Shown here piece by piece: positions 4,506 to 64,000 of a DNA stretch of 64,000 bases. Numbering within the stretch: position 1 is the stretch's first letter; each line of letters opens with the position of its first letter. Made by a program: the position numbers and the translations under genes. Under the pieces are notes generated by a model. That model was not told where the DNA came from. It saw only the letters and a list, made by a program, of their open reading frames with translations, and searched no databases. Origin of the DNA: Bryobacterales bacterium (GTDB taxonomy: Bacteria; Acidobacteriota; Terriglobia; Bryobacterales; UBA6623); contig OZ252099.1 in NCBI GenBank assembly GCA_965248305.1, positions 4,785,981 through 4,849,980 on the forward strand, given 5' to 3'.

Positions 4506-4741
4506 GTGGTCAGTACATTGAGCAGGATACGCCAAAAAACGGGAAAAGACGCAGAATCCAAGCCAGCAAGACGCTGTGCAGGCGATTGTTAGGGGAAAAT
4601 AGGCCGGTCCAAGGGCTTTCGGCAAGTGATTCTAGCTGAGAACCGGGCCAAAACTCCAAACTTGGGGGCGGCGGCCGCCATCGCCGTTGGGGTGATACTC
4701 ACCTTCGTCGTTTTCTGGTGAGCATCGCCTGACAAGCTAGA

Positions 4742-5758: not shown

Positions 5759-6106
5759 GAGCATTTGCCTTTCGGGCCGATTACGCGCGACGGAAGGCTC
5801 GGCCCACTAGCTCCCCTTTGGACACAATGCAGGATTGCGGGTCTAAGCGCGCCATCCACAAGGACTATTACTTAGCCGGTGGCCCGCTTTGTGGTGTGAG
5901 ATCATCACGCAACTTCACGGGCGCGAATTTTGTGGACAAGAAACACGTAAGCTCTTATGCTTGAGAAGTTCCGGAGAGAGGGATTGTCGCCACCGCGTCG
6001 AATTCTCTCTCCCCAGTGCCGCAGGTGGCGCAAGCCACCGCTGCGGCAGGTCGCAAATCCCCCCCGCCCAGCGGGTGGAGGCCGCTTGGGGCCGGGTGAT
6101 ACGGGA

Positions 6107-12742: not shown

Positions 12743-12747
12743 CTCGC

Positions 12748-14196
12748 ATGGACACTCACTCGTTCCAACAGATCCACCCTCGCCGTGCATTTCTCGAACG
12801 TTGCGCGGGCGGCCTGGGTTCCATGGCACTTTGGCATCTGATGGCCCAGGACGGCGTGGCAGCCGAGGCCTCGACCGGTTTTCCTGGCGCGAACCCGCTC
12901 GAGCCGCAGCCGCCGCACTTTGCGGCCACCGCGAGGAACGTCATCTTTCTCTACATGGCCGGCGGGCCGAGCCAGTTGGATCTGTTTGACCCCAAACCGG
13001 GGATGAGGAAATGGGAGGGACAGGTCCTTCCAAGGTCGCTGACCCAGCACCTGGATCTCGCGTTCATCAAACCGACGAACAAAATCTGGGCCAGCCCGCA
13101 GACCTTTCGGCCTCGCGGCGAGTGCGGCATGGAAATCTCGGACTTGCTGCCTCACACGGCCGCTTGTGCGGACGACATCTGTCTGATGCGCTCCGTAACA
13201 ACCGACCAGATCAATCATCATCCCGGTCAGCTCATGATGAACTGCGGTTCCGGCCTGGTGGGCAGGCCGTCGATGGGGGCCTGGGTTACTTATGGACTGG
13301 GCAGTGAGTCCCAGAACCTGCCTGGTTTTGTCGTGATGGGTACCGGCGGCGGGACCAGCGCGGGTAATGCCAACTGGGGCAGCGGCTTTCTCCCATCCAG
13401 TTACCAAGGGGTTCCATTTCGGAGCGCCGGAGACCCGGTGCTCTACCTGTCGAACCCGCCGGGGTTCAGCCGGGAGGACCAGAGGGAACGACTGGATGTT
13501 GTGCGCGATCTGAATGAGCGGCGTTTGCTAGACACCGGGGATGTCGAGATTGCGTCACGGATTGAGGCGTACGAGTTAGCCTTCCGGATGCAGGCGGCTG
13601 CGCCCGAGCTGATCGACTTCTCCAAAGAATCGCCAGCCACACTCGACATGTACGGTATCAACAAGGAAGCAAGCCGGGCGTTCGGAACCAACTGCTTGTT
13701 GGCACGCAGGATGGTCGAGCGGGGAGTCCGATTCGTCGAGGTGTTCCACAAGGGCTGGGACCAACACACGAGCCTAAACCGGGATCTCGCGAAGCAGTGT
13801 GAGATCACCGACCAAGCTTGCGCTGCCCTCCTGAAGGACCTAAAGCAGCGAGGCCTGCTCAACGACACTCTGGTGATCTGGGGCGGAGAGTTCGGCCGCA
13901 CGCCAATGGTGGAGAACCGCCAACCTGACCAAGCGAACAGCATCGGGCGTGACCACCACCGCCGGGCTTTCACCATGTGGATGGCGGGCGGCGGGGTTCG
14001 GCCTGGTCAGGTCGTCGGCAAGAGTGATGAACTGGGTTTCAACGTTGTGGAAGACCCGATCCATGTGCATGATCTCCACGCCACGGTCCTCCACTGCCTC
14101 GGCCTCAACCACAAGCGACTGACCTATCGGCACCAAGGCCGCGATTTCCGTCTTACGGACGTGGAAGGCAGTGTAGTAAGGAAACTGTTGGCGTGA
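12748..14196 (+). CDS. DUF1501 (sulfatase-fold) protein, copy 2
   Basis: PRRAFLERCAGGLGSMAL leader, then IFLYMAGGPSQLDLFDPKP...GRDHHRRAFTMWMAGGGVRPG. Paralogous to 8631-10109. Confidence 0.9.
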   Translation: MDTHSFQQIHPRRAFLERCAGGLGSMALWHLMAQDGVAAEASTGFPGANPLEPQPPHFAATARNVIFLYMAGGPSQLDLFDPKPGMRKWEGQVLPRSLTQHLDLAFIKPTNKIWASPQTFRPRGECGMEISDLLPHTAACADDICLMRSVTTDQINHHPGQLMMNCGSGLVGRPSMGAWVTYGLGSESQNLPGFVVMGTGGGTSAGNANWGSGFLPSSYQGVPFRSAGDPVLYLSNPPGFSREDQRERLDVVRDLNERRLLDTGDVEIASRIEAYELAFRMQAAAPELIDFSKESPATLDMYGINKEASRAFGTNCLLARRMVERGVRFVEVFHKGWDQHTSLNRDLAKQCEITDQACAALLKDLKQRGLLNDTLVIWGGEFGRTPMVENRQPDQANSIGRDHHRRAFTMWMAGGGVRPGQVVGKSDELGFNVVEDPIHVHDLHATVLHCLGLNHKRLTYRHQGRDFRLTDVEGSVVRKLLA

Positions 14197-22767: not shown

Positions 22768-24843
22768 GTGCGCTCGAACCTGATTAGCCGACGCGATCTG
22801 CTGGCGCTAGCTGCTGCCAGCGCAGTCTCTAGGGCGTCAGGACAGACACAATTCGGCACGATGCTCTGGGAGTACGTGCGGGAGTACATTCGTCTGCTCG
22901 ACGAGCGCCGTGCCGAAGCACTCACGAAGCTGGAGTCGGAAGGCGACTTCTCAGCGCTGCGTGACAGAGTGCGCAACGAACTGGTGCGCAGCTGGGGCGC
23001 ATTCCCGCCCCGCTCGCAGCTCAACCCGAAGCACGTCGGGACGGTCGAGGCGGGAGACCATCTGATCGAGAAGATCGTCTTCGAGAGCCGGCCGGGCTTT
23101 CATGTCACGGCCAACCTGTACCGCCCCCGCGAGTCGGCGGGGCGGCTGCCCGCGATCATCTTCCCGTGCGGTCACGGCAAGGGCGGTAAGGCCGCCGAGA
23201 GCTACCAGTCGTTCTCGTCGCTGATGGCTCGGCACGGCATCGCCGTACTGACCTGGGATCCGCTCGGACAGGGCGAGCGCCATCAGTATGTGGATCCGAA
23301 CACCGGCATGACGAGCTTCTCGCCGGGTACCGGGGAGCACCGAATCTTGGGCGACCGGTGCTACTTGCTCGGCGAGAACCTGATGCAGTACCGGGCTTGG
23401 GACGCCACCCGCGCGCTGGACTACTTGGAATCGCGCCCCGAATTCGACCCCGCGCGGGTCGGCATCGCCGGCCAGTCCGGCGGAGGCATGGTGACGCTGC
23501 AGTTCGCATGCTTCGACGACCGGATCAAGGCCGCTTTTGCCAGTTGTGCGGTGGCAAGCTTCCGAGCCAAGACCGAGGCGCTGCTCATGGCCGATCCGGA
23601 ACAGGTCCTGTACGGCACGCTGCGAGCCGGAATCGACCATCCCGAACTGCTCGCGGCCTTTGCCCCGAAGCCGCTGTTGATCGGAGCGGCGCTCAGGGAT
23701 TTCGTCCCTATCGAGGGCGCTAGGCGGACGCATGCGGAGCTGCAGTCTGTCTATGAAAGGCTCGGCGCTGAGAACAACCTCGAGCTGGCGGAAACCGACG
23801 CCACTCACGGACTGAACCGGGAGCTCCGCGAAGCCGCCTGCTCGTTCTTCCTGCGGAAGCTCGCGGGGCGCGAGCAAACGGTCTCCGAGGCGCAAGCCGA
23901 AATCCGGCCGGAGCAAGAGCTGGCCTGCACTGCCGCCGGCCAGGTCGCGATTTCACTTGGGGCCAAGAGTGTCGCCGATCTCAGCGCGGAGCGGGCGGAC
24001 GCGATCACGCCGACGTTTGAAACGCCTCGCAGTGCAAGCGAATTCGGTGTCTACCAGAGCGTCATCGCCAACCGGATCCGCGAGGTCACGCGGGTCGGCT
24101 CGTTCAAGGCAGAATCCGGGATCGACGTGCCTTCCCGGTTCCTCGACGCCGGCGTGTATGCCAAGGGGGCGGTGTTCTTGGTCGCGGACCAGGGCAAGGA
24201 CCACCCGCTCGTGCAGCGCTACCTCATCGATGCCGTGGTGGCGTCGAACCATAGCGTGTACGGTCTCGACGTGCGCGGCTGGGGAGCAACCAAACCCGCG
24301 ATGCCGTCCTTGGACGTGGGCTTCGATTGGGACGACTTTCTCGCCTACCGCAGCCTTGAGTTGGGGCGCCCGCTGTTCGGCCAGCGCCTCAAAGACCTGC
24401 TCGCAACCGCTCCGAAGCTGACCCAGAGACGTGAATGGATCGTAGCGGGCGTTGGTATCGGTGGCCTCATCGCGGCACACGCGGCAGCCCTCGATGCACG
24501 CATCGTGGGCGTTGTGAGCATCCAAGCGCCCATTTCCTACCGGTCGATCCTGGATGACCCAGAGGCGACGCAGCCGGTGAGCTGTCTACTTCCCGGAGTT
24601 CTGGGAGCGTACGAGATCCGCGATCTATACGCGAGTCTCGCTCCCCGGCCGCTACTGATCATCAATCCACAGGACTCGCGACGCCGGACGGTGGAATCGG
24701 AAGCTGCGAAGTCAGCATTCACCTGGGCGCGCGACGTCTACGATGCACTCGAAGCGACTGACTCGCTGCGAATCGAGACTGGATTGGGGCGGACTGATGT
24801 CCGGGAGCTTGTCGGCGAATGGCTGGGCTCCGCCTCGGCCTGA
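22768..24843 (+). CDS. Secreted alpha/beta hydrolase (acetyl-xylan-esterase / dienelactone-hydrolase-like)
   Basis: TAT-like leader SRRDLLALAAASAVS, nucleophile elbow GIAGQSGGG (GxSxG), 691 aa. Confidence 0.7.
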   Translation: MRSNLISRRDLLALAAASAVSRASGQTQFGTMLWEYVREYIRLLDERRAEALTKLESEGDFSALRDRVRNELVRSWGAFPPRSQLNPKHVGTVEAGDHLIEKIVFESRPGFHVTANLYRPRESAGRLPAIIFPCGHGKGGKAAESYQSFSSLMARHGIAVLTWDPLGQGERHQYVDPNTGMTSFSPGTGEHRILGDRCYLLGENLMQYRAWDATRALDYLESRPEFDPARVGIAGQSGGGMVTLQFACFDDRIKAAFASCAVASFRAKTEALLMADPEQVLYGTLRAGIDHPELLAAFAPKPLLIGAALRDFVPIEGARRTHAELQSVYERLGAENNLELAETDATHGLNRELREAACSFFLRKLAGREQTVSEAQAEIRPEQELACTAAGQVAISLGAKSVADLSAERADAITPTFETPRSASEFGVYQSVIANRIREVTRVGSFKAESGIDVPSRFLDAGVYAKGAVFLVADQGKDHPLVQRYLIDAVVASNHSVYGLDVRGWGATKPAMPSLDVGFDWDDFLAYRSLELGRPLFGQRLKDLLATAPKLTQRREWIVAGVGIGGLIAAHAAALDARIVGVVSIQAPISYRSILDDPEATQPVSCLLPGVLGAYEIRDLYASLAPRPLLIINPQDSRRRTVESEAAKSAFTWARDVYDALEATDSLRIETGLGRTDVRELVGEWLGSASA

Positions 24844-30302: not shown

Positions 30303-31889
30303 CTACAGCGGGGGAGGGACGTACGCCGGGTTGGGGCTATGTCGAATCGGGACGTTGGCCTCGATCCACGCTGCCAGCTTGGCCTGCAGTTCTTCCGCAA
30401 TCCGCGGGAACTGGCCCGAAAGCTCCGCGCGCTCGCCAATATCGTCATCGAGGCGATACAGCTCGACATGCGGCGGATCGTAGAACTCGAGCAACTTGTA
30501 GCCGCCCGATAGGATCGCTGCCCCGGGAGCCCTGGCCTGCGGGCTGTAGTGCGGGTAGTACCAGACCAAGTCGCGCGAGTCCCACTCGCCGCGCTCGATC
30601 AGCGAGGCGAGACTCCTGCCGTCAAGCGCCGGCAAGCTGTGCGGATCGACGCCCCCGACCTCCGCAATGAACGGATACAGGTCGGCGTTCGTAACCGGCT
30701 CGCCCTCGATGGTGCCAGGCACGCCCCGACCCGGCCACCGAACAATCAGAGGAACCCGGATGCCCCCTTCATAGAGGTGGCCCTTGCCCGCCCGCAGCGG
30801 CGCGTTGTCGGTCACCGTGTCGAGGCCGCCATTGTCCGAGGCCACGATCACGACGGTGCGATCGTCAATCCCAAGTGCCTCCAGCGCATCGAGGATCCGC
30901 CCCACGCTGTCATCCACCGTTTCGACCATCGCGGCATAGACGGCATTCTTGCCAGAGTCTGAGGCAGCCATCTTCGATTCGTACTTGCGCACGAGATGCT
31001 CGGGAGCCTGCAACGGCGTATGCACCGCGTAATGCGACAGGTACAGAAAGAACTGGCGGTCTTTGTTCGCCTCGATGAACTTCAGTGACTCGTCCGTGAG
31101 GCGATCCGTCAAGTACTCCCCTGCGCTGCTGCGGGCAAGATCCAGATTGGGCATGTCCGGGTTCCACGCCTGCTCCGGCTGTTGGTACGGGAAGAAATAG
31201 CTCGCGGGGCTGCCGTGGGTGTGCCCGGCAACATTGATGTCAAAGCCGTGCTCGCGGGGCCAGTACGGCTCGTGCCCAAGATGCCACTTGCCGATGCTGG
31301 CCGAGACATACCCCACTCCCCTGAGGACTTCAGCGAGGGAGTTGAATTCGTGCCGCAGGTACATGAAGTCCTCGGGCGGCACGATCGCTCCCCGCTCGGG
31401 ATAACGATGGCGACCAATCGCGGTGATGTGCCCCGTGAATCCCACCCGACCCGGATTCTGGCCGGTGATCAGAGCAGCGCGGCTCGGTGAACAAACCGGG
31501 CAGTTCGAATACGCCTGGGAAAAGCGCACGCCCTCGGCCGCAAGCGCGTCGATTCGCGGAGTCTCGTAGAACTGCGACCCTTGGCAGCCGAGATCCATCC
31601 AGCCCAGGTCATCGACCAGCACCAACACCACGTTTGGCGGGCCGGGCTGTGCCTGCCGGCCCCAGTCACACGCCAACAGCGACAGCACGGCAGACAATGC
31701 TGCGACGACCGCCCGAGCGAAGAGCCCCGCACGAGCAGAACTAATTCCGCCGCCCGGGGCTTGCGCTGGGCCACCAGTTTGGGCAATACTGGAACTTCGG
31801 GGTGAATACCCCGAACATCTCGGTCGCGCTGACCGACCAATTGGTTTGGTTTGCGCGCCCCCCTCTTCAGGCTGAACAGGAAACTGCAT
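30303..31889 (-). CDS. Arylsulfatase-family sulfatase (formylglycine type), probable lipoprotein
   Basis: NVVLVLVDDLGWMDLG and the CSPSRAALITG (C-x-P-S-R) active-site motif. A LLAC lipobox-like leader is present. The ORF opens at 31955; the ATG at 31889 is preferred, and the start is uncertain. Confidence 0.88.
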   Translation of the reverse strand: MQFPVQPEEGGAQTKPIGRSARPRCSGYSPRSSSIAQTGGPAQAPGGGISSARAGLFARAVVAALSAVLSLLACDWGRQAQPGPPNVVLVLVDDLGWMDLGCQGSQFYETPRIDALAAEGVRFSQAYSNCPVCSPSRAALITGQNPGRVGFTGHITAIGRHRYPERGAIVPPEDFMYLRHEFNSLAEVLRGVGYVSASIGKWHLGHEPYWPREHGFDINVAGHTHGSPASYFFPYQQPEQAWNPDMPNLDLARSSAGEYLTDRLTDESLKFIEANKDRQFFLYLSHYAVHTPLQAPEHLVRKYESKMAASDSGKNAVYAAMVETVDDSVGRILDALEALGIDDRTVVIVASDNGGLDTVTDNAPLRAGKGHLYEGGIRVPLIVRWPGRGVPGTIEGEPVTNADLYPFIAEVGGVDPHSLPALDGRSLASLIERGEWDSRDLVWYYPHYSPQARAPGAAILSGGYKLLEFYDPPHVELYRLDDDIGERAELSGQFPRIAEELQAKLAAWIEANVPIRHSPNPAYVPPPL

Positions 31890-31890
31890 C

Positions 31891-31933
31891 GCTTGCTTTG
31901 CGGGCCGGGTGCGTAAGCACAGGCTTGCTTTGC
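31891..31933. repeat. Two 11-bp direct repeats GCTTGCTTTGC in the sulfatase/groES divergent region
   Basis: GCTTGCTTTGC occurs at 31891-31901 and 31923-31933, with starts 32 bp apart. The second copy ends 28 nt upstream of the groES GTG. No CIRCE-like TTAGCACTC-N9-GAGTGCTAA was seen. Confidence 0.85.
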
Positions 31934-31961
31934 CCACCCAAATCGGAGGAATCATACCACT

Positions 31962-53075: not shown

Positions 53076-54563
53076 CTAGGGCAGGGCGTTCCTCCATCCG
53101 CCGCGAAGTTGAGCCGCCAGCGAGTCTACGAGGGCCACGGCCTCGCGACGATCGGCGAGATTTATCGCTTCAATCGGAGACCTCTCCAAGTCGTACAGCT
53201 CTCGGGCCACTACCGTTCTGTCACGGTCTAACCACTCGGTAAACCGAAACTGCTGCGTGCGCATGCTGTAGCCCATGTGAACCCAGTCCTGATCCGCCAG
53301 ATAGGGGCGCGGGATCTGACTGAATGCCGCCTTCTTCCAGTGGCGGCCCGGATCGTCCAGCAACGGGAGCATCGAAATCCCTTCCAAGCCTTCGGGTGCT
53401 TCGATGCCGCACGCTGCGCACAGCGTTGGGTACATGTCGACGAATTCGACGAGTCCCGCACAATTCTTACCGCCAGCAAGCATCCCCGGGACCCTCAGCA
53501 TCATCGGGGCGCGGGCGTCGAGTTCGAAGTTCGTGGTCTTGGCCCACGACGCTTGCTCCCCCAAGTGCCAACCGTGGTCGCCAAACAGGATTATCACGGT
53601 CCTGTCGGCTAGGCCGAGGTTCTCGAGCTCTCGCAACACGCGGCCGACTTGTGCGTCCATATAGCTGGTGGCCGCGTAATACCCGTGGATCAGTTCGCGG
53701 ACCTTGCCCGGTGGGACTGGCCCGTCGGCGGGGATGTCTGTGTACCCGCGCAACTCTTGAAAGCGGGTGAAGGCCACCGCCGGGGCGTCCGCGGGGCGCT
53801 GGGCATCTTCAGGCACCGGCAGCGCGGCGCGATCGTACAAGTCGAAGTATCGCTTTGGCGCCGTAAAGGGCAGGTGGGGCTTTTGAAACCCAACGGCAAG
53901 AAAGAATCGATCGTCTCGCAGGCGGCGCAGCGCGCCCACCGCCCGATCTGCCACCTGGCCGTCTTGCAGGGCATTGTCGGGCACCTCCGGTGCCTGCCAA
54001 GAGGCCAGCTTCTTCCACTCCAGCGTCGGGATGTCGTCACCTGACCATTGCCGGTTGGGATTCTCCCGCCGCATTGCGGCGAAGCGGTCCTCATCGACGT
54101 ACTGCATGCCGGCCTGCCGGCCTCCTGTCGGCCACGCCGGCACGCTCCATGACGGTTGGTCGGCCTTGTTGCCGTGCAGCACTTTGCCGATTGCCTGGGT
54201 GTAGTATCCCGACTGCTTGAAGCGTTGCGGCAGTGTGACCAAATCAGGCATCGTCTCGCGGAAGTGCGTGCGGTTGCCCCACACTCTCGTGGTGTCCGGC
54301 CTCAGCCCCGTAAGCAAGGACGCCCTAGACGGCCCGCAGACCGCTGACTGGCAGTAGGCCCGCTGAAACACTAAGCTGCTGGAAGCGAATCTGTCCAGAT
54401 TCGGCGCCAGGACAAGGTCGTTGCCGTAGCAGCTCAATTCGGGCCGCAAATCGTCCACAGCTAGGAACAGCACGTTGAGGCCGTTGCCAGCTGCCTCGGC
54501 AGGCTGCGCGCCCAAGCCTGTTGAGGCGATGGCGCCCGCGAGGAATCCGCGGCGGTCGATCAT
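53076..54563 (-). CDS. Sulfatase (iduronate-2-sulfatase-like) with TAT leader
   Basis: MIDRRGFLAGAIASTGLGA leader, NVLFLAVDDLRPELSCYG, and the CGPSRASLLTGLRPDTT (C-x-P-S-R) motif. Its ATG overlaps the upstream TGA (ATGA at 54560-54563). Confidence 0.9.
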   Translation of the reverse strand: MIDRRGFLAGAIASTGLGAQPAEAAGNGLNVLFLAVDDLRPELSCYGNDLVLAPNLDRFASSSLVFQRAYCQSAVCGPSRASLLTGLRPDTTRVWGNRTHFRETMPDLVTLPQRFKQSGYYTQAIGKVLHGNKADQPSWSVPAWPTGGRQAGMQYVDEDRFAAMRRENPNRQWSGDDIPTLEWKKLASWQAPEVPDNALQDGQVADRAVGALRRLRDDRFFLAVGFQKPHLPFTAPKRYFDLYDRAALPVPEDAQRPADAPAVAFTRFQELRGYTDIPADGPVPPGKVRELIHGYYAATSYMDAQVGRVLRELENLGLADRTVIILFGDHGWHLGEQASWAKTTNFELDARAPMMLRVPGMLAGGKNCAGLVEFVDMYPTLCAACGIEAPEGLEGISMLPLLDDPGRHWKKAAFSQIPRPYLADQDWVHMGYSMRTQQFRFTEWLDRDRTVVARELYDLERSPIEAINLADRREAVALVDSLAAQLRGGWRNALP

Positions 54564-55999
54564 TGAGTTCGCCCCTCTGGGCGGCGCTGCCATGTGTAAG
54601 TTTCAGGGTCGAAGTCGAAAGCCCTCTTAAGCGGTGCCTGCGGCGCATTCACCCTGGGTAGCCACTGTGCATGCTCTGCGATAACCGCCGCGTTGGCAGC
54701 GTCGCTCGCCAGGTTTGTCCATTCATCGGGATCCGCGCTGTGGTCATAGAGTTCCTCTTCGCCGGAGGCATAGCGGATATAGCGGTAGCGCTCCGAGCGG
54801 ACCGCGTGGTTGTTGCGGCCAAAGGTCATCACTGCAGGACGTTTCCATTCCGCTTCCGGATGCTCGAGCAGTGGTCGCAGGCTCACTCCTTCAAGCTCTT
54901 CCCGCACGGGCAGATCGCACAGATCCACCAGGGTCGGATATAGGCTGATCAGGCTCACCGGTCGGCCGGAGCGCCCACCCGGCGTGCTGACGCCGGGCGC
55001 GATGATCGCTAGCGGCACGTGCGACGATCGCTCCCACAGTGTGTTTTTCGTCAAGTGGTATTTCTCGCCGAAGTGATAGCCATGGTCGGACCAGAGCACG
55101 ACGACAGTGTTTCGCGCGTAAACGCTAGCGTCCAGCGCGTCGAGCACGCGACCGATCAGCGCATCGGCGTGTCGGATGCCGGCCGTGTAGCTGCGCACGA
55201 CGTCGTCCATGTCGCCGTGCTCTAGGATCAGTTCGAGATCGGCGACGCGATAATCGGCCATCTTGCGGCCGGCCGCCGGTATGTCGTCTAGATCGCCGGG
55301 ATTGTCCAACGGGACTGGAGCATCGTCCGCACTCACCGAGTCGTACCACGCCCGCGGAGCGTAGAACGGTAGGTGCGGCTGGAACAGCCCGACCGCCAGG
55401 AAGAACGGACGATCGTGATCCCGAGCCAGAAATTCTTCGGCCCAGCGCACAGTTGCGCCATCGCCCATCTCCATGTCGGTCTTGTCCAATGGGCCCCAGT
55501 CGAAGCTGCTGAGGTGGTCCGGGCGACGATAGGGGATTAGGAAGCCGTCAGTCTTCAAGTCGGTGACGAGGTCGAAGTATTCGTCCCACGACTCGGGAGG
55601 ATTGAAGCCCGGCGTGTGGTGGAAGACTTTGCCGCCGCCCGCCGCATAGTAGCCGTTGTCCTTGAAATAGCGCGGCAGCATCACGACATCCGGCAGGTTT
55701 GGCTTCCACCATTCGCCGTTGGCATAGACGCCCGTCGTCGATGGCCGCAAACCGGACAGGATCGCCGTTCGGGACGGATTGCACTTGGGCGATGGAGCAT
55801 GCGCGTTGGTGAAGAGCGTCCCCCGCTCGCTGAGTCGGTCGATGTGAGGCGTCTTGGCGACCTCGTAGCCGAGAGCGCCGACCCAATCGTTCATGTCGTC
55901 AACGCTCAGGAAGAGCACGTTGGGTTGTGGCAGGGGCGTGGCGGAGCATGCCGCAAATGCCAAGGCAAGCACCGCCATGGTGAATTCAAGAATCCGCAT
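54560..55999 (-). CDS. Sulfatase, probable lipoprotein
   Basis: MRILEFTMAVLALAFAACS lipobox, NVLFLSVDDMNDW, and the CNPSRTAILSGLRPSTTG motif. The ATG at 55999 is chosen inside the ORF that starts at 56059. Confidence 0.9.
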   Translation of the reverse strand: MRILEFTMAVLALAFAACSATPLPQPNVLFLSVDDMNDWVGALGYEVAKTPHIDRLSERGTLFTNAHAPSPKCNPSRTAILSGLRPSTTGVYANGEWWKPNLPDVVMLPRYFKDNGYYAAGGGKVFHHTPGFNPPESWDEYFDLVTDLKTDGFLIPYRRPDHLSSFDWGPLDKTDMEMGDGATVRWAEEFLARDHDRPFFLAVGLFQPHLPFYAPRAWYDSVSADDAPVPLDNPGDLDDIPAAGRKMADYRVADLELILEHGDMDDVVRSYTAGIRHADALIGRVLDALDASVYARNTVVVLWSDHGYHFGEKYHLTKNTLWERSSHVPLAIIAPGVSTPGGRSGRPVSLISLYPTLVDLCDLPVREELEGVSLRPLLEHPEAEWKRPAVMTFGRNNHAVRSERYRYIRYASGEEELYDHSADPDEWTNLASDAANAAVIAEHAQWLPRVNAPQAPLKRAFDFDPETYTWQRRPEGRTQ

Positions 56000-56055
56000 G
56001 CTCTGCTCAAGCCGCTCAGACTGCGGCCGCATCGTGAGTGTACTCAGGGTTGCCA

Positions 56056-57588
56056 TCACCGTTCTACGCTCATGGCCGAGGCTGGCTGGTCTGGGGCAAG
56101 GTATGCGGTGTAGTTCCAGCCCTCGGGCCGCTCGTACTTGCCGTTCTTGAGTGTCGACTCAATCTCGGCCTTCAGCCGGGCGGTGTTGGCCGGATCGAGA
56201 AACGGATCCTCAGTCTGCACACGCCACTGCTGCAGTTTCGCCTTCAAGCGCCGGAAGGTACCCTCGTAGGCCGGGCCGGTAGCGATGTTCGTGAACTCGT
56301 ACGGATCGACGGCTAGGTCGTACAGTTCGTACTCCGGGGGGCTGGCCATGGCTTCGTATGCCATGCGCACTCGCTCGGGCGCGCGGCCCAGCGCTTGCAG
56401 CAGCTCCGCCTCGCCGACAAACTTGTCGATCGTGAAGGCATGGCCGGGGTTGACCGTGTTCGGCATCAGGTTGCGGATCAATTTGTGCCGTCCGTCGCGG
56501 ACAGTGCGTTGCGGGAAGTAGTTGTGGTTCGAGTGCAGGTGAAATTCAGTGAACAGATACTCCCGCCATGCAGTAGTCTGGCCGGCCAGCAGCGGGGTCA
56601 GCGAGCGGCCTGCCAGCCCGGTAACCCCTCGGGCAGCGGCCACTTCCAAGAAGGTCGGCATCAGGTCGAGCGTCGAGACCAGTTCCTCGCGTACTTGACC
56701 CGCCTGCTGTAGGCCCGGCCAGCGGGCGATCAGCGGAATCCGCACTCCGCCCTCATAGGATGTCCGCTTGCCGCGCAGCAGGTCTGCACCGTGATCGCCG
56801 AGATAGACCACCAGCGTGTCGTCGGACTTGCCCGAGGCCGTGAGAGCTTGCAGCAGGTCGCCCACGAACCGATCCAGTCTGCTGACGGAGTTGTAGTAGT
56901 CCGCTGTATCCTTTCGCAGTACCTGAGAGTCGAGCGCCATGTATTCCAGCGGCTCGACATTCGCTCCTTGCAGCGGCCACTCTGGGATGCCGTCCACCTG
57001 TGGCATGAATGGCCGGTGGGCGTCGGGGTAATTCACCGACAGGAAGAACGGCTGCTCTGCCTGCCCCATGAATTCGGCTGCAAGGGCGGCGTAGCGTTCC
57101 ATGCCCTCGCGCTGGAAGTTGGCCGAAGGGATCTTGGCGAAGTCGAAGGGGAACGCGTCGGGTGGGTTGACGTGCAATTTGCCAATGATGCCAGTGCGGT
57201 AGCCGGCTTGCTTGAGGCTGCTCACAATGTTGGGGGTATCGCTGCGATACAGGCCGAATTTCCACGTAGCTAGTCCGATCTGGCCGTTTTGGTGGGGATA
57301 AAGCCCGGTCAACAAGGCTGCCCGCGACTGGCTGCAGCCGGCTTGCGGCACATAGGCATTCTTAAAGCGAACCCCGCCAGCCGCCAGCGCGTCCAAGTGG
57401 GGGGTCGACACGTAGGGCGTGCCGTACGCTCCGATTTCCGGCCCGTTGTCTTCAGAGACGATCAGGAGGATATTAGGCCTCACCGCGAAGCCTGAGCTGT
57501 CGACCTGGCCTGGAATGGAGCAGCTTGCAAGGGCGATGAGAGCGGCCGCCCCGGCGCAAGTACGGGGTGTCATCTCGGAACGCTCCAA
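56056..57588 (-). CDS. Sulfatase (N-sulfoglucosamine-sulfohydrolase-like) with atypical CSQSR active-site motif
   Basis: LIALASCS lipobox, NILLIVSEDNGPEIGAYG, GCSQSRAALLTGLYPHQNG. The Cys codon is at 57334-57336, and the position normally occupied by Pro is Gln. Confidence 0.88.
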   Translation of the reverse strand: MERSEMTPRTCAGAAALIALASCSIPGQVDSSGFAVRPNILLIVSEDNGPEIGAYGTPYVSTPHLDALAAGGVRFKNAYVPQAGCSQSRAALLTGLYPHQNGQIGLATWKFGLYRSDTPNIVSSLKQAGYRTGIIGKLHVNPPDAFPFDFAKIPSANFQREGMERYAALAAEFMGQAEQPFFLSVNYPDAHRPFMPQVDGIPEWPLQGANVEPLEYMALDSQVLRKDTADYYNSVSRLDRFVGDLLQALTASGKSDDTLVVYLGDHGADLLRGKRTSYEGGVRIPLIARWPGLQQAGQVREELVSTLDLMPTFLEVAAARGVTGLAGRSLTPLLAGQTTAWREYLFTEFHLHSNHNYFPQRTVRDGRHKLIRNLMPNTVNPGHAFTIDKFVGEAELLQALGRAPERVRMAYEAMASPPEYELYDLAVDPYEFTNIATGPAYEGTFRRLKAKLQQWRVQTEDPFLDPANTARLKAEIESTLKNGKYERPEGWNYTAYLAPDQPASAMSVER

Positions 57589-58095: not shown

Positions 58096-59482
58096 TTGGA
58101 CAGTGCAGTGTGGGCGGAGAACGAGTTCTGAGGGGCGGAGTTGGCAGACAAGCGACTGACGGCCCGGCTGGTGCGCGGCGCGGCCTTGCTGGCGGAGTTT
58201 CCGGGGCGCGCGCTCAGCGACGCGGCGGCGGTGGAGGGGTACTACCGCTTCATCGAGGAGCCGGAGGTCAGCGCGGTCACGGAGGAGAGCATCCTGGCAC
58301 CCCACCGGGAGCGGAGCATCCAGCGCATGCGCGGCCAGTCGGTGGTGCTGTGCATCCAAGACGGCAGCGACCTGAACTTCGCGACGCGGCCGGGTTCCGA
58401 GGGGCCGGAGGTGATCGGCCGCAACCAGACGCGCGGCAAAGCGCTGAGGCTGCATTTGCACCTGACCCTGGCGACGACCGCGCAGGGGCTGCCGCTGGGC
58501 GTGCTGCGCTACGGCTTCGGCACGTCGGCCAAGGGCCGCTAGCGGCAAGTCGCGGCGCTGGATCGAGGGCTACCGCGACATCGCGGAGGCGGGGCGCGCG
58601 CTGACGCGCCAGACGCGGCTGATTGCGGTGATGGATCGGGAAGGGGAGTTCTTCGAGTTGTTCGACGAGCAGCGCCGGAACGGCCGGGTTGACATCCTCG
58701 TGCGCGCGAAGCACGATCGCAAGCTCGGGCAGCCAGACGAGAAGCTGTTCGCCGCGATGGCCAGCGGCACCGCCGACGGGCACGTTGAAGTCGAGATTGC
58801 CGGTCTGAGTGCGCGTCCGAAGTCGAGCGGCGAGCAGGCCCGCCCGCCGCGCCTGAAGCGCATGGCGGTGTGTGCACTGCGGCGCCGGCGGCTGACGCTG
58901 CCGGCCACGCGCGCGGGCCAGCAGCCGGTCTGCCTGTGGGGCGTGCATATCGTGGAGAGCGAGCCGCCCGCAGGCGAGGCGGCGATGCAGTGGCACCTGC
59001 TGACGAGCCTGCCGGTCGCCGACGCCGCCTCGGCCGCGGAGATCGTGCGGCACTACCTGCAGCGCTGGCGGGTGGAGGACTTCTTCCGCGTGCTCAAGGC
59101 CGGTTGCCGGGTGGAGCACCTCATCTTCCGCACGGCGGACCGACTGCAGCGCGCGATCGCGATCAACAGCGTGATCGCGTGGCGCATCATGGTGATGACG
59201 CTGCTGGGACGACAGGTTCCCGACTGTGCCGCGGCCCTGATGTTCACGGATCACGAGCTGGGATTTCTCAGCGACTACGCCCGCAAATTCAGCTTGCCCG
59301 GTCCGGACAGCCTCGGCCCGGCGGTGCGCTTGGTGGCCCATCTCGGCGGCTATCGGGATCGGAAACATGACCCTGAACCCGGCAGCCAGCTCATGTGGCA
59401 CGGCTTCGACACCCTGACCAAAGCGACCCTAGGACATCAGATCGGACTAGAAAGCGCTGGGAATCATGCCATCGAACACTAA
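58096..59482 (+). pseudogene. IS4-family Tn5/IS50-like transposase, inactivated (in-frame TGA + frameshift)
   Basis: (TTG 58096) DSAVWAENEF-TGA(58129)-GAELADKRLTARLV... parallels the Tn5 sequence ADWAKSVFSSAALGDPRRTARLV. The frame changes by +1 at ~58535-58544 (..GTSAKGR* then GKSRRWIEGYRDIAEAGRALTRQTRLIAVMDREGEFFELF). The downstream block YLQRWRVEDFFRVLK fits Y-x2-R-x3-E-x6-K. IS termini are not resolved. Confidence 0.85.
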
Positions 59483-59707: not shown

Positions 59708-59896
59708 TCAGGAGCCAAAGATGAAACTCAGAACACCAGCGAGCACGGCCACAGAAATTGTGCCGAAGAGCGAAATGAACATCCAAAGCATTCTCCTGTT
59801 TGAAGTTTCGTAGGCTTTGAGCGTCGCGTCGATTCGGACGATAGCGATTTTGTTCTCAGCAACAGTCGTCTTGAGTGCATCCAAGGCGGCCATCAT
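59708..59896 (-). CDS. Small protein with C-terminal transmembrane helix (62 aa), in frame with the upstream ORF across a TAG
   Basis: MMAALDALKTTVAENKIAIVRIDATLKAYETSNRRMLWMFISLFGTISVAVLAGVLSFIFGS. The hydrophobic tail is ~23 aa. No family was recognised. Confidence 0.45.
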   Translation of the reverse strand: MMAALDALKTTVAENKIAIVRIDATLKAYETSNRRMLWMFISLFGTISVAVLAGVLSFIFGS

Positions 59897-59902
59897 GGTG
59901 TT

Positions 59903-60151
59903 CTAGGTGGCCTTGAGGGCACCCAGAGTGGCGTGGAGGGCGTCCAGAGCGGCCATCATGGTGTTCTGAGCGGCCTTATTCTCGACCTGCATCGCCTCGA
60001 TCTTGGAGATGATGTTCTCTCCGGCCATGGCCCGTACCTCTTCCACCGCAGTATACGCCAAGGCACTCTCCGAATCGACCTTTCGCAAGAGGCGGTAGAG
60101 CCCGGCTAGGGCTTCGGTATCGTTCTTCGTGATTCCTTGTTTCGTGGGCAT
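59903..60151 (-). CDS. Small predicted coiled-coil protein (82 aa)
   Basis: The ATG at 60151 is preceded by GGAGG at 5-nt spacing. The protein is MPTKQGITKNDTEALAGLYRLLRKVDSESALAYTAVEEVRAMAGENIISKIEAMQVENKAAQNTMMAALDALHATLGALKAT and ends at a TAG (59903-59905). No family was recognised. Confidence 0.45.
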   Translation of the reverse strand: MPTKQGITKNDTEALAGLYRLLRKVDSESALAYTAVEEVRAMAGENIISKIEAMQVENKAAQNTMMAALDALHATLGALKAT

Positions 60152-60609
60152 GTTGTCCTCCTGCCGCCCTGTCCTTGCTTCATTTGAACGACGGACCGTG
60201 TACCTTCTATTGATATTCGTATATGAACTGATATAGATCAACAAACTTGCTGCAATAATTTCGCAAACAGGTCAGGCCAAGCGACTCCTTAGCTCGTGAT
60301 TGCGCGGTGAGCGACAAGCTCGGGCTTCGGAATCAAGCTGGTGGCAAGACGATCACGGCGTGGGAGCATGTGAGCTGACTATGCCCGATGATGTTGCGCG
60401 GTACGTGATGAAAATCCACCGATCACGCGCTGTGTGGCCCACAACAGACAGCAACCACAATATTTTCGATGATTTAACAACTTCGATCTAGTTGACAGGC
60501 AGTTGCTGGAAAGTCGAGTTCGGACTGATATCAACCGACGCGGCTGCGAATGAATGGGGAATTACACCGAATAGTGACTATTTGCCCCTTGACACCGGCG
60601 GCAACACAC

Positions 60610-60780
60610 CTACTTCGCGGACTTCTTGCAGTCCCATTCGTCAAGCTTCGTCTTCTTGGGCGTTGACCTCACAAGCGCCTTCAGCACGTTCTCGAACGTG
60701 TCAGGGATCGGGTCCGGCGTGCGGTACTTCACGGGGCGGCCACGCTTGCGCTTAGATGCTGTTGGCTTCTGCTCTTTCAC
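60610..60780 (-). CDS. Possible 56-aa basic AT-hook-like protein (not in supplied ORF track)
   Basis: My own translation gives (GTG 60780) VKEQKPTASKRKRGRPVKYRTPDPIPDTFENVLKALVRSTPKKTKLDEWDCKKSAK, ending in TAG at 60610-60612. It is in the same frame as the 944-aa gene, starting 12 codons after that gene's TGA. Confidence 0.4.
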   Translation of the reverse strand: MKEQKPTASKRKRGRPVKYRTPDPIPDTFENVLKALVRSTPKKTKLDEWDCKKSAK

Positions 60781-60816
60781 TACCGTCGCCTTATCGTCGT
60801 GCGTGTCATCTTGTTC

Positions 60817-63651
60817 TCACGGTACATCGATTCGCGTACGCTTCCCGCCGTGGACGGAGGGTTCGGCGCACCACTGCTGGCGCAGCAGGTCTAGCCCCTC
60901 CTGCAGGCCGAGATCGAGTTGCAGCAGACTCGTGACTCCGAACAGCAAGTCACGGTCGAGGGCCTTGCGCGTCTCGTCGTGCCACGCCTCATTGGCGGGC
61001 AGGAACTCGCGATTCTGCAAGTTGTCGAAGATCGCACGGCAGTGATCCAGCTGCTGATCTGTCAGCGTGCGGGGGTCGAGCACAGGAAGGTCGGGAATCG
61101 CTGTGATCGTCATATTTGAACGGCCCATCTGCTGGCGCGTGCCCTTCCACCAGTGCATGAGCAGACCCAATGTCGAATTGCACCATAGCAGCAGCGGAAT
61201 CTCGTAACGCTCGTCCCTGGGCACAATGTTCGGCCATGCCCTGCCCCCGAGGCATTTCTCCGGCGTGAGGCACATGCCGAGGCTCTGGGAGTTCAACCGG
61301 AAGTCCAAGTTGGCGTGCAGGCGGGATGCCGTGCGATTCCAGCGCTCGGCGGCTCGCGTTTCGTCACCCGGGCGCGGATCTCCGCAGGAGTCGGCCTGCA
61401 CGACGAACTGGCGCTCCCGGTCGGCGGAATGGGCCCAGAGCAGCGGGTAGGTCGGCACCTCGCCCGAGCGGATGGCACGCACGACGAAAGGGCCTCGGGC
61501 CAGTCCTGTCCCATCGTGACGCGTGAAACCGCCGTTGATGTCCCTATGGACCAGGCCTCGCGCCGCTACGGTGCCCAGAGTTACCACGGGCAATCCGATC
61601 GCTTGCGCCTGCCGCGGCAGGCGCAGACTCCCCGCCTCCAGACCACGAGCGGCCTCGATGACGCTTATGGATCGGACGCCCGCTACGCCGCCGTCGAGAA
61701 TGTCGCCCGGCACGGCTCGGCACCTTGCGTCCGTAGCGCCTACGGCTGCTTCCAGCAGGGACGCGGGTCTTGCCGCCAGATTGGAGTATGCCGCGCGGGA
61801 GTTGGCGCCGCTTCGCTTCGTGGCCACGACAAGGCACTCGGCCATGCCTGTGTCTGCGGAGAATGCGCGTGCCGTCGAGCCGGTAGTGGCAATGGACGTG
61901 ACATGAATGTCGCTGTAGTGAGCCTTCAGTGCTTGCCGCGCTCGTTCCCATGACCTGCCTTGGACAAACGCGAACGGAAGCACAAGGGCTAGCACGCCGC
62001 CGTCTTTCAGCTTGCGGTGTCCCAGGTCCATGAAGTTCGACGCGAGGCCGGCGTTGCCGCTGCTGAACGCAGCGGCGGCTTTCTTGAGCTTCCGCCCCAT
62101 CTCTTGCTGCTCGTCATGCGACGTGTTGAAGCCCGCGAACGATGGAACCGGTATCTGGGCATGACCGGCCTCGTGGTTCGTGGGCCTCGTGAACGGGGGG
62201 TTCATGATGACCAGATCGCAGGACGTGTGCTTGATCTTGACGATGTGCCCGCTACGGCTGTCCGACTGCCTGCCGACCATGGACTCGCCCGTGGCGAACA
62301 GGGAGTGGGAATTCTCGGAATCGAGCAGATCGAGTGCTCCGATGTGAGTCCCGGCATTATCGATCCCGTAGGGCATTGTGTGGATCTGGGATTCCCCGTA
62401 GGCGAGCGAGGGGTGGGAACTGGACAGCATGGAGCAAGTGAGATGGGTTGCGGCGGGCATCACGTCCAGCCCGGTCAGAACGCGCTCCATCAGGGTTCGA
62501 TGCAAGTCCTTGTCATCGCCTCCAGCCCTGCGGTAGCGCCGGTAGACTGCACGCTGCGCGGCGGAGAGCAAGGCCCCTGTGCCGCAGGCGAAGTCCGCAA
62601 TCCGCAGGCCTTCGATAGCGGCCCTGTCCGCCCAATCCACATCCAGCCGCTCGACCGCCAGTTCCGCGAGCAAGCAGGCAGATTCAGGCAATGTGTAGAA
62701 GGTGGCGAGGAACTTGCGGTCTGAGATGAGGGTCTGAAACATCCGCCCCGTGAGGTCGTGATAGGTCGTCGCGCCCAGCTGGGCCAAGGCCGAGATGGAC
62801 TCCGCGATGCAGTTCATGACCGGCGGCACGGCTCTGATGGGCAATTCTTCCACGAGGGCGCGGGCAATGCTAAAGATCGGCCAGTAGTTGATTTCCAAGA
62901 TGGCGTTCCATGTCAGCAGAAGCCCCCCCTTGTCGATGGAGCCCGCTAACGGAACAGGAGGGATGTCTGCCTGCCCTTCGATCGCCACGTGAAATACGAA
63001 GGCAGAGACGCAGATAGCCGCTGCCATGCGCTCAGTTTGCTCGCCCGCTGCCTGGTGCAGGTCCTTTGCGATCCGCGCCAGAGGGCCTTCTTCGACGTGC
63101 TTGGCCAGCAGTCCCGCTGCGTTCCGCACCACTTGTTCGAGGGCTTCCGTCCCTCGTGCCAGTTGCCGTTCCGAGAGGGACAGGTACTCGATGGCATCCG
63201 CGAGATCGTCCACGCCCCCTTCAAGCCACTCCGGCCGTGAAGGCCAGCGGATGCTCTCTCCCTTGGCGCCCAGGTAGTGCGTGGCGTAGCGGAACTTGGC
63301 ACTCTCGACGGTTTCGAGGTCGTCTGTCTTGAGGCTCTCCGGCAGAACAACGGACAGCACGCCTTCAATGTCCTCTCCGGTGCTATGCAAGCTCGTTCCC
63401 AGCCTGGCGGTCGCGTCTTGCTCGACTGTGTGAGCAGGTGCGAACTCTGTCTCCACGATCACTGGCTGTCGGCGAGGAGGAGCGATGAGAATATCCGGCC
63501 TCTTGCCTGTACCCGTGCCTGGCAGGGCGTGTTGAATCACCTGGGTCTTCTCGGCGTGGACAGTCCCGTCGTTCCAGTCGGGATTTCGTCGTCTCAGCGC
63601 ACGAGCCAGCGCACCGTTCGCTAACGGTTCGGTGTTGCGCGGGCCACTCAT
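60817..63651 (-). CDS. 944-aa fusion: HsdR-N/PD-(D/E)xK-like N-terminus + gamma-class N6-adenine DNA methyltransferase + TRD-like C-terminus (Type IIG/IIL-like)
   Basis: N-terminus GKRPDILIAPPRRQPVIVETEF (D-x13-E-x-E). The block HDLTGRMFQTLISDRKFLATFYTLPESACLLAELA resembles the FYTP block of amino-MTases. Motif I is IADFACGTGALL and motif IV is VIMNPPFTRP. The tail LLLWCNSTLGLLMHWW...ITAIPDLPVLD resembles the LNS...LPI end of Eco57I/TaqI-C-type TRDs. Confidence 0.8.
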   Translation of the reverse strand: MSGPRNTEPLANGALARALRRRNPDWNDGTVHAEKTQVIQHALPGTGTGKRPDILIAPPRRQPVIVETEFAPAHTVEQDATARLGTSLHSTGEDIEGVLSVVLPESLKTDDLETVESAKFRYATHYLGAKGESIRWPSRPEWLEGGVDDLADAIEYLSLSERQLARGTEALEQVVRNAAGLLAKHVEEGPLARIAKDLHQAAGEQTERMAAAICVSAFVFHVAIEGQADIPPVPLAGSIDKGGLLLTWNAILEINYWPIFSIARALVEELPIRAVPPVMNCIAESISALAQLGATTYHDLTGRMFQTLISDRKFLATFYTLPESACLLAELAVERLDVDWADRAAIEGLRIADFACGTGALLSAAQRAVYRRYRRAGGDDKDLHRTLMERVLTGLDVMPAATHLTCSMLSSSHPSLAYGESQIHTMPYGIDNAGTHIGALDLLDSENSHSLFATGESMVGRQSDSRSGHIVKIKHTSCDLVIMNPPFTRPTNHEAGHAQIPVPSFAGFNTSHDEQQEMGRKLKKAAAAFSSGNAGLASNFMDLGHRKLKDGGVLALVLPFAFVQGRSWERARQALKAHYSDIHVTSIATTGSTARAFSADTGMAECLVVATKRSGANSRAAYSNLAARPASLLEAAVGATDARCRAVPGDILDGGVAGVRSISVIEAARGLEAGSLRLPRQAQAIGLPVVTLGTVAARGLVHRDINGGFTRHDGTGLARGPFVVRAIRSGEVPTYPLLWAHSADRERQFVVQADSCGDPRPGDETRAAERWNRTASRLHANLDFRLNSQSLGMCLTPEKCLGGRAWPNIVPRDERYEIPLLLWCNSTLGLLMHWWKGTRQQMGRSNMTITAIPDLPVLDPRTLTDQQLDHCRAIFDNLQNREFLPANEAWHDETRKALDRDLLFGVTSLLQLDLGLQEGLDLLRQQWCAEPSVHGGKRTRIDVP

Positions 63652-63820
63652 GGGTTCTCGTCCTTCGCCAGCTGATCCTCTGCCGAGGTGCCGTGCTCGG
63701 CCAGCTATTCGCTACCAAGCCAGCGATCAGTCCCATTCTCGCAGGACTTGGCCCAGAACTCAGTTGATGGCCGGCTCGCCGGTTCCCAACATCCCGATTC
63801 CGCCTTCCGGCGACTCCCTC

Positions 63821-64000
63821 TCATGCCCCCAAGTCCCGATACTTGAGCCGTTTTCCGACCATGCCAAGAACGATCGCCCGCGTCTGCTCCGGCGTGTCGA
63901 TCTGCCTGTCGTTGCGCCGTCCATCGGGACCGCCAAGACCTAGTTCGTCCCTCGGTCCTAGATGCCGACTCCAGCCGCCTTCCAGACAGGGCCGCGGCCG
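63821..64000 (-). CDS. 3' end of an unidentified gene continuing beyond the window (last 59 codons)
   Basis: My own translation of the minus strand, open from nt 64000, gives RPRPCLEGGWSRHLGPRDELGLGGPDGRRNDRQIDTPEQTRAIVLGMVGKRLKYRDLGA, ending in TGA at 63821-63823. It is too short for the supplied ORF track and lies 169 nt upstream of the 944-aa gene. Confidence 0.5.
   Translation of the reverse strand, partial: RPRPCLEGGWSRHLGPRDELGLGGPDGRRNDRQIDTPEQTRAIVLGMVGKRLKYRDLGA

Follow-up and report, generated by a model that had tools for sequence, protein, structure and literature searches.

A predicted single-chain nuclease-methyltransferase family with a conserved E-x-E site, found in a Bryobacterales genome

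Background

What does a long open reading frame (ORF) near the end of a Bryobacterales sequence encode: a restriction-modification (RM) enzyme with an unusual nuclease site, or a methyltransferase that carries the remains of one? The ORF lies in a stretch of 64,000 nucleotides (hereafter the window) from contig OZ252099.1 of assembly GCA_965248305.1 (positions 4,785,981 to 4,849,980, forward strand). An earlier note had read it as a 944-aa fusion of a nuclease-like module with an NPPF methyltransferase, resembling the MmeI-type Type IIG/IIL enzymes in size and domain order and showing E-x-E where E-x-K is usual. We consider it probable that the protein is a stand-alone, single-polypeptide RM enzyme of the Type IIG/IIL kind with a BamHI-type nuclease site. 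The most fitting description is that of a new sequence family inside the Type IIG/IIL class, with a rare catalytic variant.

Domain architecture and structural class

The ORF is complete, starts with ATG and occupies the minus strand (stop codon at 60817-60819). All residues read from it before (944 aa in length, D53, E67-T68-E69, FACGTG at 354-359 and NPPF at 484-487) are found in the sequence. An 'LNS...LP-like block' is conserved as well (DFRLNSQSL, aa 783-791), but it is located about 150 aa before the C-terminus and not at the end, where it had been placed. The features of the gene are as follows, with the evidence for each in brackets.

60817..63651 (-): single-chain nuclease, connector, methyltransferase and target-recognition protein, as predicted (ORF, more than 6000 full-length homologs, AlphaFold2 model, BpuSI and DrdV matches)
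63178..63651 (-): predicted N-terminal PD-(D/E)xK-type nuclease domain, aa 1-158 (modelled topology, weak fold matches; no Pfam match)
63445..63498 (-): putative catalytic motif P52-D53-x13-E67-T68-E69 (near-invariance, aligned ExK in relatives, BamHI/OkrAI precedent; PMC3025578)
outside 63445..63498 (-): auxiliary conserved residues E8, E34 and R83 (conservation)
62722..63177 (-): all-helical connector between nuclease and methyltransferase, aa 159-310 (AlphaFold2 helices 161-310; equivalent to MmeI 156-300 and the BpuSI connector)
61816..62721 (-): Rossmann-type gamma-class methyltransferase, aa 311-612 (partial Eco57I, PglX, mad2 and MTase_II matches; motif invariance; structural matches to HsdM, CamA, M.BseCI and BrxX)
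62575..62595 (-): motif I, S-adenosylmethionine (SAM) binding, D353-F-A-C-G-T-G359 (sequence and invariance)
62191..62202 (-): motif IV, catalytic, N6-adenine type, N484-P-P-F487 (sequence and invariance)
60820..61815 (-): presumed target-recognition domain (TRD), aa 613-944, alpha/beta followed by a helical bundle at aa ~865-934 (AlphaFold2 secondary structure, BpuSI/DrdV alignment, exchangeable cassette)
61492..61761 (-): candidate specificity determinant, aa ~631-720 (least conserved part of the C-terminal half; insertion hot spot)
63661..63666 (-): putative Shine-Dalgarno-like element GAAGGA, 9 nt upstream of the ATG (sequence)

The AlphaFold2 model of the full protein, built on an alignment of 128 sequences (45-97% identity), is confident (mean predicted local distance difference test score, pLDDT, 84.7; predicted template modelling score, pTM, 0.87) and resolves four parts. 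When this model is compared with the PDB using Foldseek, BpuSI ranks first (3s1s, E 5e-16; the alignment runs the full length) and DrdV second (E 2.5e-14). Lower ranks are taken by BrxX/PglX (with the highest template modelling (TM) scores, 0.43-0.46), the Type ISP enzymes LlaBIII and LlaGI, BsaXI, CamA, M.BseCI and Type I HsdM subunits. The structure check proposed earlier thus yields a confident model closest to Type IIG/IIL enzymes, and the likeness to MmeI in size and domain order is upheld by these two top matches and by domain boundaries close to those of MmeI. Within the methyltransferase (MTase) the motifs follow the gamma-class order FxTFYTxP, DFACGTG, NPPF; the corresponding FLATFYTLP (314-322), DFACGTG (353-359) and NPPF (484-487) are invariant or almost so among homologs, and motifs I and IV are invariant in the 79 full-length homologs introduced below. 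The C-terminal 330 aa are confidently folded and align, as part of full-length comparisons, inside the BpuSI and DrdV matches and also to CamA and M.BseCI. As modelled, the protein has the architecture that defines Type IIG/IIL enzymes: a nuclease, a helical connector and a gamma-class N6-adenine MTase in one chain.

For the 944-aa protein, every Pfam and NCBIfam match falls short of the cutoff of its model. A Pfam scan at E<=1 reports Eco57I, MTS and DUF1771 only. The Eco57I match (PF07669, 21.2 bits, E 3.4e-4) spans aa 474-583, from motif IV on, and stays below the gathering threshold of 25.3 bits; a precomputed PF07669 match is present in some homologs. Membership of the MmeI family was rejected, given that no MmeI Pfam domain (the MmeI-specific domains cover the N-terminal, helical, MTase, TRD and C-terminal parts) appears at E<=1 and that the family profile retrieves no MmeI or DrdV chain from the PDB at E<=10. 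An exact-sequence look-up of the protein gave no match, sources label family members solely 'hypothetical protein', and a literature search on sponges and Type IIG returned no description of the family.

The protein might alternatively be the MTase part of a multi-gene defence system (PglX of BREX, MAD2 of MADS or DrmMI of DISARM) with its partners located elsewhere. Weak partial matches to all three cover the MTase core: PglX (NCBIfam NF033452) with 22.1 bits and E 2.8e-5 (PADLOC PglX E 3.6e-6), MAD2 (NF047738) with 11.4 bits (PADLOC mad2 E 5.8e-11, MTase core only) and DrmMI with 0.07. BREX PglX/BrxX is the only sequence match in the PDB (motif I region) besides giving the top TM scores. We regard this alternative as extremely improbable, since 22 bits stand against a cutoff of 500 for PglX and 11 against 720 for MAD2. 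Moreover, PglX, MAD2 and DrmMI come without an N-terminal PD-(D/E)xK nuclease, and at 77 loci from named genomes, over which we clustered the flanking ORFs, there is no conserved neighbour and none of the BREX, MADS or DISARM kind. A component of these systems was therefore rejected.

The N-terminal nuclease domain

In the model the N-terminal domain consists of a helix (8-20), strands at 31-33, 54-56 and 64-70, a helix at 76-81, a strand at 97-103 and further strands. With E8 on the first core helix, D53 at the start of the second strand and E67/E69 in the third strand, the residues are placed as is canonical for the PD-(D/E)xK fold, whose topology and residue placement have been described (PMC3424549). 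A separate model of aa 1-160 has a pLDDT of 89.5. Among its top 15 PDB matches, 13 are PD-(D/E)xK nucleases (MGME1, the Cas4-family proteins ACE1 and SSO0001, EXO5, AdnAB and a splicing endonuclease), with SfsA, NucS and McrC at lower ranks. In the viral library BFVD the named matches are overwhelmingly 'PD-(D/E)XK nuclease' (best E 0.007). Individually these fold matches are weak (E 0.007-0.5), and scanning 24 diverse isolated N-terminal domains against Pfam at E<=10 gave scattered single matches and no family.

The earlier note had named the absence of nuclease-fold similarity as the result that would undo its nuclease-like module. The topology, the ExK-bearing relatives (see below) and the predominance of nucleases among the matches all favour the module, though each match by itself is weak. 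We conclude from the model that the N-terminal 158 aa form a PD-(D/E)xK-type nuclease domain, which is a new sequence family because it lacks a Pfam match.

Conservation of the active site

To count residues we used 79 full-length homologs (42-85% identical), all taken from named genomes. D53 is present in 78 of them, E67 in all 79 and E69 in 77; for the auxiliary residues the counts are 76 (E8), 76 (E34) and 79 (R83). The presence of these residues in the window protein is therefore no coincidence. For a second set, the N-terminal 300 aa served as query and 150 cluster representatives (50% identity) were compared: here position 69 is E in 132 and K in 9 ('VEAKF/R'), and the remaining frame (E8, N12, E34, D53, E67, R83, E96, R135) is unchanged in both groups. 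Canonical forms are also seen in more distant relatives. A relative on Aminobacter plasmid pUSP4 has 'RPDVLI...VAIEGKF' aligned to 'RPDILI...VIVETEF' of the window protein (full length, BLASTP E 2e-62), and a haloviral relative, labelled 'type IIG restriction modification enzyme' by its depositor, has 'QPDFQI...FVGEAKW'.

The replacement of E-x-K by E-x-E, as D53...E67-T-E69, is thus real and is the norm of the family, so that a local inactivating mutation was rejected. Two explanations had been offered for it, an inactive nuclease or a variant active site. Because E-x-E is the family norm and ExK occurs at the aligned position in relatives, the site appears from these alignments to be a conserved variant like that of BamHI; decay is not supported, with E-x-E in 132 of 150 representatives and near-invariant carboxylates. 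Glu at the 'Lys' position is compatible with activity, as in BamHI (E77, D94, E111, E113) and OkrAI (E71, D86, E99, E101); outside the BamHI isoschizomers, BtsCI was the one other case known at the time (PMC3025578). Judging from conservation, the nuclease of the window protein is fairly likely to be active.

Several points weigh against an active nuclease. The Foldseek search with the aa 1-160 model gave no statistically significant match (best PDB E 0.085). Furthermore, E113K in BamHI and Lys-to-Glu changes in EcoRV and EcoRI severely reduce activity, in the latter two to the point of abolishing cleavage (PMC3025578), which leaves some room for one of the E and K forms being impaired. The Lys-to-Glu results also speak for a methylase-only protein, in which the K-to-E change would have killed cleavage and the nuclease-like domain would now serve as a DNA-binding, regulatory or oligomerisation module of an orphan adenine MTase for epigenetic marking or protection. 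Such a role would fit the good alignment of the pure methyltransferases CamA and M.BseCI to the MTase and C-terminal part (TMt ~0.6), the existence of N-truncated variants without the catalytic core (P0087, P0088, P0107) and the NCBI label 'N-6 DNA methylase' on a relative. Yet a dead site should drift, whereas at least 150 clusters (50% identity) keep the four acidic residues and R83 almost without exception; the all-acidic constellation closely matches the active BamHI/OkrAI pattern, and the remaining frame is common to the ExK and ExE forms. We therefore hold the methylase-only explanation to be unlikely and prefer an active enzyme.

Variant forms of the site were also encountered. The N-truncated homologs mentioned above (846-847 aa) begin only at the counterpart of residue 98 and are without D53, E67 and E69, and a second copy at locus L072 (13054-15687) is without the PD motif; all of these may be methylase-only derivatives or gene-call artefacts. 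In a Bryobacterales metagenome-assembled genome (MAG; locus L008, 19929-22820, minus strand) a second, highly divergent paralog (21-36% identity per domain) is found ~7 kb away from the main copy. With 'VDV...IEAEF' and 'NPPY' it points to another subfamily, also of the E-x-E form.

A self-sufficient single-gene unit

Upstream of the ATG the window continues for 349 bp, and a metagenome contig (L001) that carries the same locus (window 59794-64000, 98.4% DNA identity) was used to look further. On the upstream side it has a 98-aa ORF followed by VWA, CvpA, methyltransferase, TPR and GH2 genes only. The earlier statement that no separate restriction or specificity subunit is visible therefore holds in the window and, via L001, beyond it. 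Downstream of the gene the window has two small ORFs without informative match, a split Tn5/IS4-type transposase and three sulfatases. Pairing with the small downstream ORF as a conserved two-gene system was rejected, because the 113-aa and 62-aa ORFs are common only to L001, which is the same locus.

The most frequent neighbour family reaches at most 12 of the 77 loci, and the families that recur are of the housekeeping kind (such as ABC ATPase, FAD oxidase and DnaE). The lone character of Type IIL enzymes is thereby reproduced: there is no companion methyltransferase or partner gene conserved in these loci. Between ~85%-identical relatives, homologous DNA reaches only 30-90 bp beyond the ORF (it begins ~29 nt upstream of the ATG), and terminal inverted or direct repeats flanking the gene were not found. 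With no conserved neighbour, no terminal repeats and homology that ends at the ORF borders, the gene behaves as a unit sufficient on its own, in the manner of Type IIL enzymes. The stop of homology to the ~85% relatives so close to the ORF led us to reject a transposon with a defined backbone. Scans for promoters and terminators around the gene returned chance-level matches only, and no second family copy was found within the window.

Because some copies are situated in conjugative contexts, a role in the service of mobile elements stays alive as a rival to host defence. The gene would then be cargo that provides anti-restriction 'passport' methylation or protection of transferred DNA, or an addiction module on integrative and conjugative elements or plasmids, and not primarily an anti-phage defence of the host. 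Conjugation-type neighbours are seen at locus L002 (TraG/VirD4, VirB11, ParA and SNase genes near the family copy), on Nitrosospira plasmid pNRS527-2 (where the copy is placed after type IV secretion system genes) and on Aminobacter pUSP4 (between DUF5710 and a zincin-like, ArdC-type gene). Moreover, insertion sequence (IS) elements flank the gene in the window and L001, the family spreads across phyla, and genomes may have multiple copies. Nonetheless, most of the 77 loci have ordinary chromosomal neighbours, and the ~85% relatives, with homology ending at the ORF borders, show no terminal repeats or shared backbone. A mobile context does not discriminate, as RM systems in general are commonly borne by mobile elements, and a protective methylase needs no conserved nuclease site. 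We consider the cargo role quite unlikely and retain the stand-alone RM enzyme as the preferred explanation. The window itself looks chromosomal, with GroEL, GuaA, FTHFS and a copper ATPase, plus PSCyt/PSD1/DUF1501 pairs, sulfatases and an acetyl-xylan esterase.

Tandem paralogs and cassette exchange

Tandem family copies occur at ~8 of the 77 loci. Where three copies stand in a row (L039), copies 1 and 3 share 91-99% DNA identity over alignment nt 150-1800 against 75-83% over nt ~1950-2550 (aa ~650-850), whereas copies 2 and 3 show the opposite, 73-85% and then 89-95%. For the tandem copies at L016, aa 613-720 are 50% identical versus ~80% elsewhere. Family-wide, aa 631-720 are the least conserved part of the C-terminal half (identity 0.36-0.45), with insertions after aa 614 and 643. 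On the aligned sequences, these identity patterns are what a recombinational swap of a target-recognition cassette would produce, and such exchange between paralogs supports the C-terminal region as the TRD. It also agrees with the published argument that a TRD common to both activities lets Type IIG/IIL enzymes change specificity safely (PMC4833311).

Proposed mechanism

We propose that the C-terminal target-recognition region would bind a short, probably asymmetric DNA motif, and that the central gamma-class MTase would flip out an adenine of this motif and methylate it at N6 on host DNA, using SAM. Unmethylated foreign DNA would be cut at a distance from the motif by the PD-(D/E)xK nuclease, tethered by the helical connector. 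For cleavage the nuclease may use a BamHI-type all-acidic metal site (E34, D53, E67 and E69, with E8 and R83 helping) and not an Asp-Glu-Lys triad. Since one reader domain would serve both activities, no partner gene would be needed, and a swap of the reader cassette between paralogs would change restriction and protection together. The data show the architecture, the fold class, the conservation of the motifs, cassette exchange and a lack of conserved partners; an active nuclease, the geometry of cleavage, strand-specific methylation and a role in defence are inferred from them.

Distribution, variant forms and significance

Database searches gave more than 6000 full-length homologs of the 944-aa protein, and at least 904 clusters at 50% identity when only the N-terminal 300 aa were used; in matches of ~950-1000 aa this region is at or near the N-terminus. 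Genomes with the family belong to Acidobacteriota, Chloroflexota, Gemmatimonadota, Alpha- and Gammaproteobacteria, Cyanobacteria (Ca. Synechococcus spongiarum), Ca. Poriferihabitaceae, Spirochaetales and others, and several have two or three copies. Sponge-symbiont MAGs from at least five phyla carry it, and five MAGs (CAR3_bin_5, COS2_bin_4, COS4_bin_16, RHO1_bin_72, RHO3_bin_12) are sponge-derived according to the supplement of PMC8163846. Enrichment of RM genes and of arylsulfatases, the latter like those of the window, has been reported for sponge symbionts, along with lateral transfer between phyla (PMC8163846, PMC5649159).

Some members are longer, as three homologs of 1188 aa (P0178, P0185, P0192) have an in-frame N-terminal ~220-aa 'DarT1-associated NADAR antitoxin' domain (PF22397, E 8e-81) before the nuclease. 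This may be a real fusion of an ADP-ribosylation antitoxin with an RM enzyme or recurrent gene-call read-through. Four others of 1115-1121 aa (P0240, P0245, P0246, P0247; P0245 with 63 and P0246 with 64 member sequences) have an N-terminal extension of ~155 aa ('MTMHRL..IRTE.DHERAMARIDELWGS...') without Pfam match. In some genomes the family copy has become a pseudogene, interrupted by a stop codon (L034 10001-12928) or by an insertion of ~1 kb (L014 10001-13979).

If the enzyme is active, the family would be a large reservoir of untapped restriction and methylation specificities. No class of RM enzyme lends itself better to engineering than the single-chain one, since a single reader domain there sets both activities. 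An active family would also be a second, independent nuclease lineage with Glu for the catalytic Lys. As point swaps of this kind cripple BamHI, EcoRV and EcoRI, natural E and K forms within one homologous frame are of particular interest, being a ready system for studying how the two chemistries interconvert. For ecology, the family provides a concrete, trackable gene behind the reported RM enrichment and lateral transfer in sponge microbiomes, and long-read sponge metagenomes could reveal which methylation motif belongs to which paralog. With a dead nuclease, this would be an ordinary orphan methylase family. More speculatively, and as a possibility we hold only tentatively, the family may be a very large unrecognised clade of lone RM enzymes that combines an all-carboxylate BamHI-type nuclease with a 'shufflon-like' cassette-exchange generator of specificity and circulates as a single-gene unit among sponge-sharing phyla, shaping which symbionts exchange DNA.

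Other features of the window

The transposase downstream of the gene (58141-59482, plus strand) is of the Tn5/IS4 type and split in two ORFs of 133 aa (Tnp_DNA_bind) and 284 aa (DDE_Tnp_1 and Dimer_Tnp_Tn5); it is probably a pseudogene. In L001 (11512-16339) extra IS66 and IS4 insertions lie between it and the RM gene, pointing to an insertion hot spot. In the adjacent 62-aa and 113-aa ORFs (59708-60244, minus strand) a shared 58-nt stretch is repeated directly but imperfectly (59857-59914 and 59920-59977), so that a 'MMAALDAL' segment is encoded repeatedly; with no informative Pfam match and conservation only in L001, they may be one interrupted coiled-coil gene. A second IS element is represented by a 652-aa DDE_Tnp_1 transposase ORF (2496-4454, minus strand), which overlaps a long ORF on the opposite strand (2571-4592).

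Three tandem sulfatases (53076-57588, minus strand), a fourth at 30303-31955 (minus strand), PSCyt/PSD1/DUF1501 pairs (5957-14196) and an acetyl-xylan-esterase-like gene (22768-24843) make up a content that fits the reported enrichment in sponge symbionts (PMC5649159, PMC8163846).

Comparison with known systems

BpuSI and the Eco57I-type Type IIG enzymes share with the window protein an N-terminal PD-x(13-15)-ExK-type nuclease, a helical connector, a gamma MTase with NPPY/F and a TRD; in BpuSI the order is a PD-x15-ExK nuclease, helical connector, M.TaqI-like MTase and TRD (PMC3185434). Sequence identity to BpuSI is ~11%, E69 replaces the catalytic Lys, and the BpuSI system comprised three genes when cloned (M1, M2 and the RM fusion; PMC3185434), whereas here there is no conserved partner.

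The MmeI-family Type IIL enzymes (MmeI, NmeAIII, DrdV) are likewise single chains of ~920-1010 aa with no companion methylase. For MmeI itself the order and boundaries are near identical: nuclease ~1-155, spacer ~156-300, gamma N6-adenine MTase ~301-620, TRD and C-terminal helical bundle, with published borders at 1-155, 156-300, 301-620, 621-825 and 826-919 (PMC4833311). Sequence similarity to this family is not detectable, and the window protein has E-x-E against the usual E-x-K of PD-(D/E)xK nucleases.

PglX/BrxX of BREX is also a large gamma-class N6-adenine MTase whose N-terminal part is helical and whose C-terminal domain serves recognition. Unlike the window protein it is ~1200 aa long, has no PD-(D/E)xK nuclease and works only in a six-gene BREX operon, and none of those genes adjoin the family.

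With BamHI and OkrAI the likeness concerns the all-acidic set, with Glu at the usual Lys position, and its similar spacing: E77-x16-D94-x16-E111-x-E113 in BamHI and E71-x14-D86-x12-E99-x-E101 in OkrAI, against E34-x18-D53-x13-E67-x-E69 here. BamHI is a small homodimeric Type IIP endonuclease without methyltransferase, and beyond the superfamily fold there is no sequence or family relationship.

Finally, three plasmid and haloviral relatives have the same length and architecture and the PD...ExK/E motif at the same place. The Aminobacter pUSP4 protein WP_108610813 ('N-6 DNA methylase') is a true distant homolog (27% identity), as is gp094 of Halorubrum virus HRTV-10 ('type IIG restriction modification enzyme', 24%); unlike the window protein they keep the canonical E-G-K and E-A-K, respectively. 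The unannotated ORF of Nitrosospira pNRS527-2 (37%) has E-T-E, as in the window protein. Overall, the kind of enzyme is familiar; what stands out is a large unnamed family that crosses phyla in a defined habitat, a rare all-acidic site with natural E/K alternates, and tandem arrays with the marks of cassette exchange.

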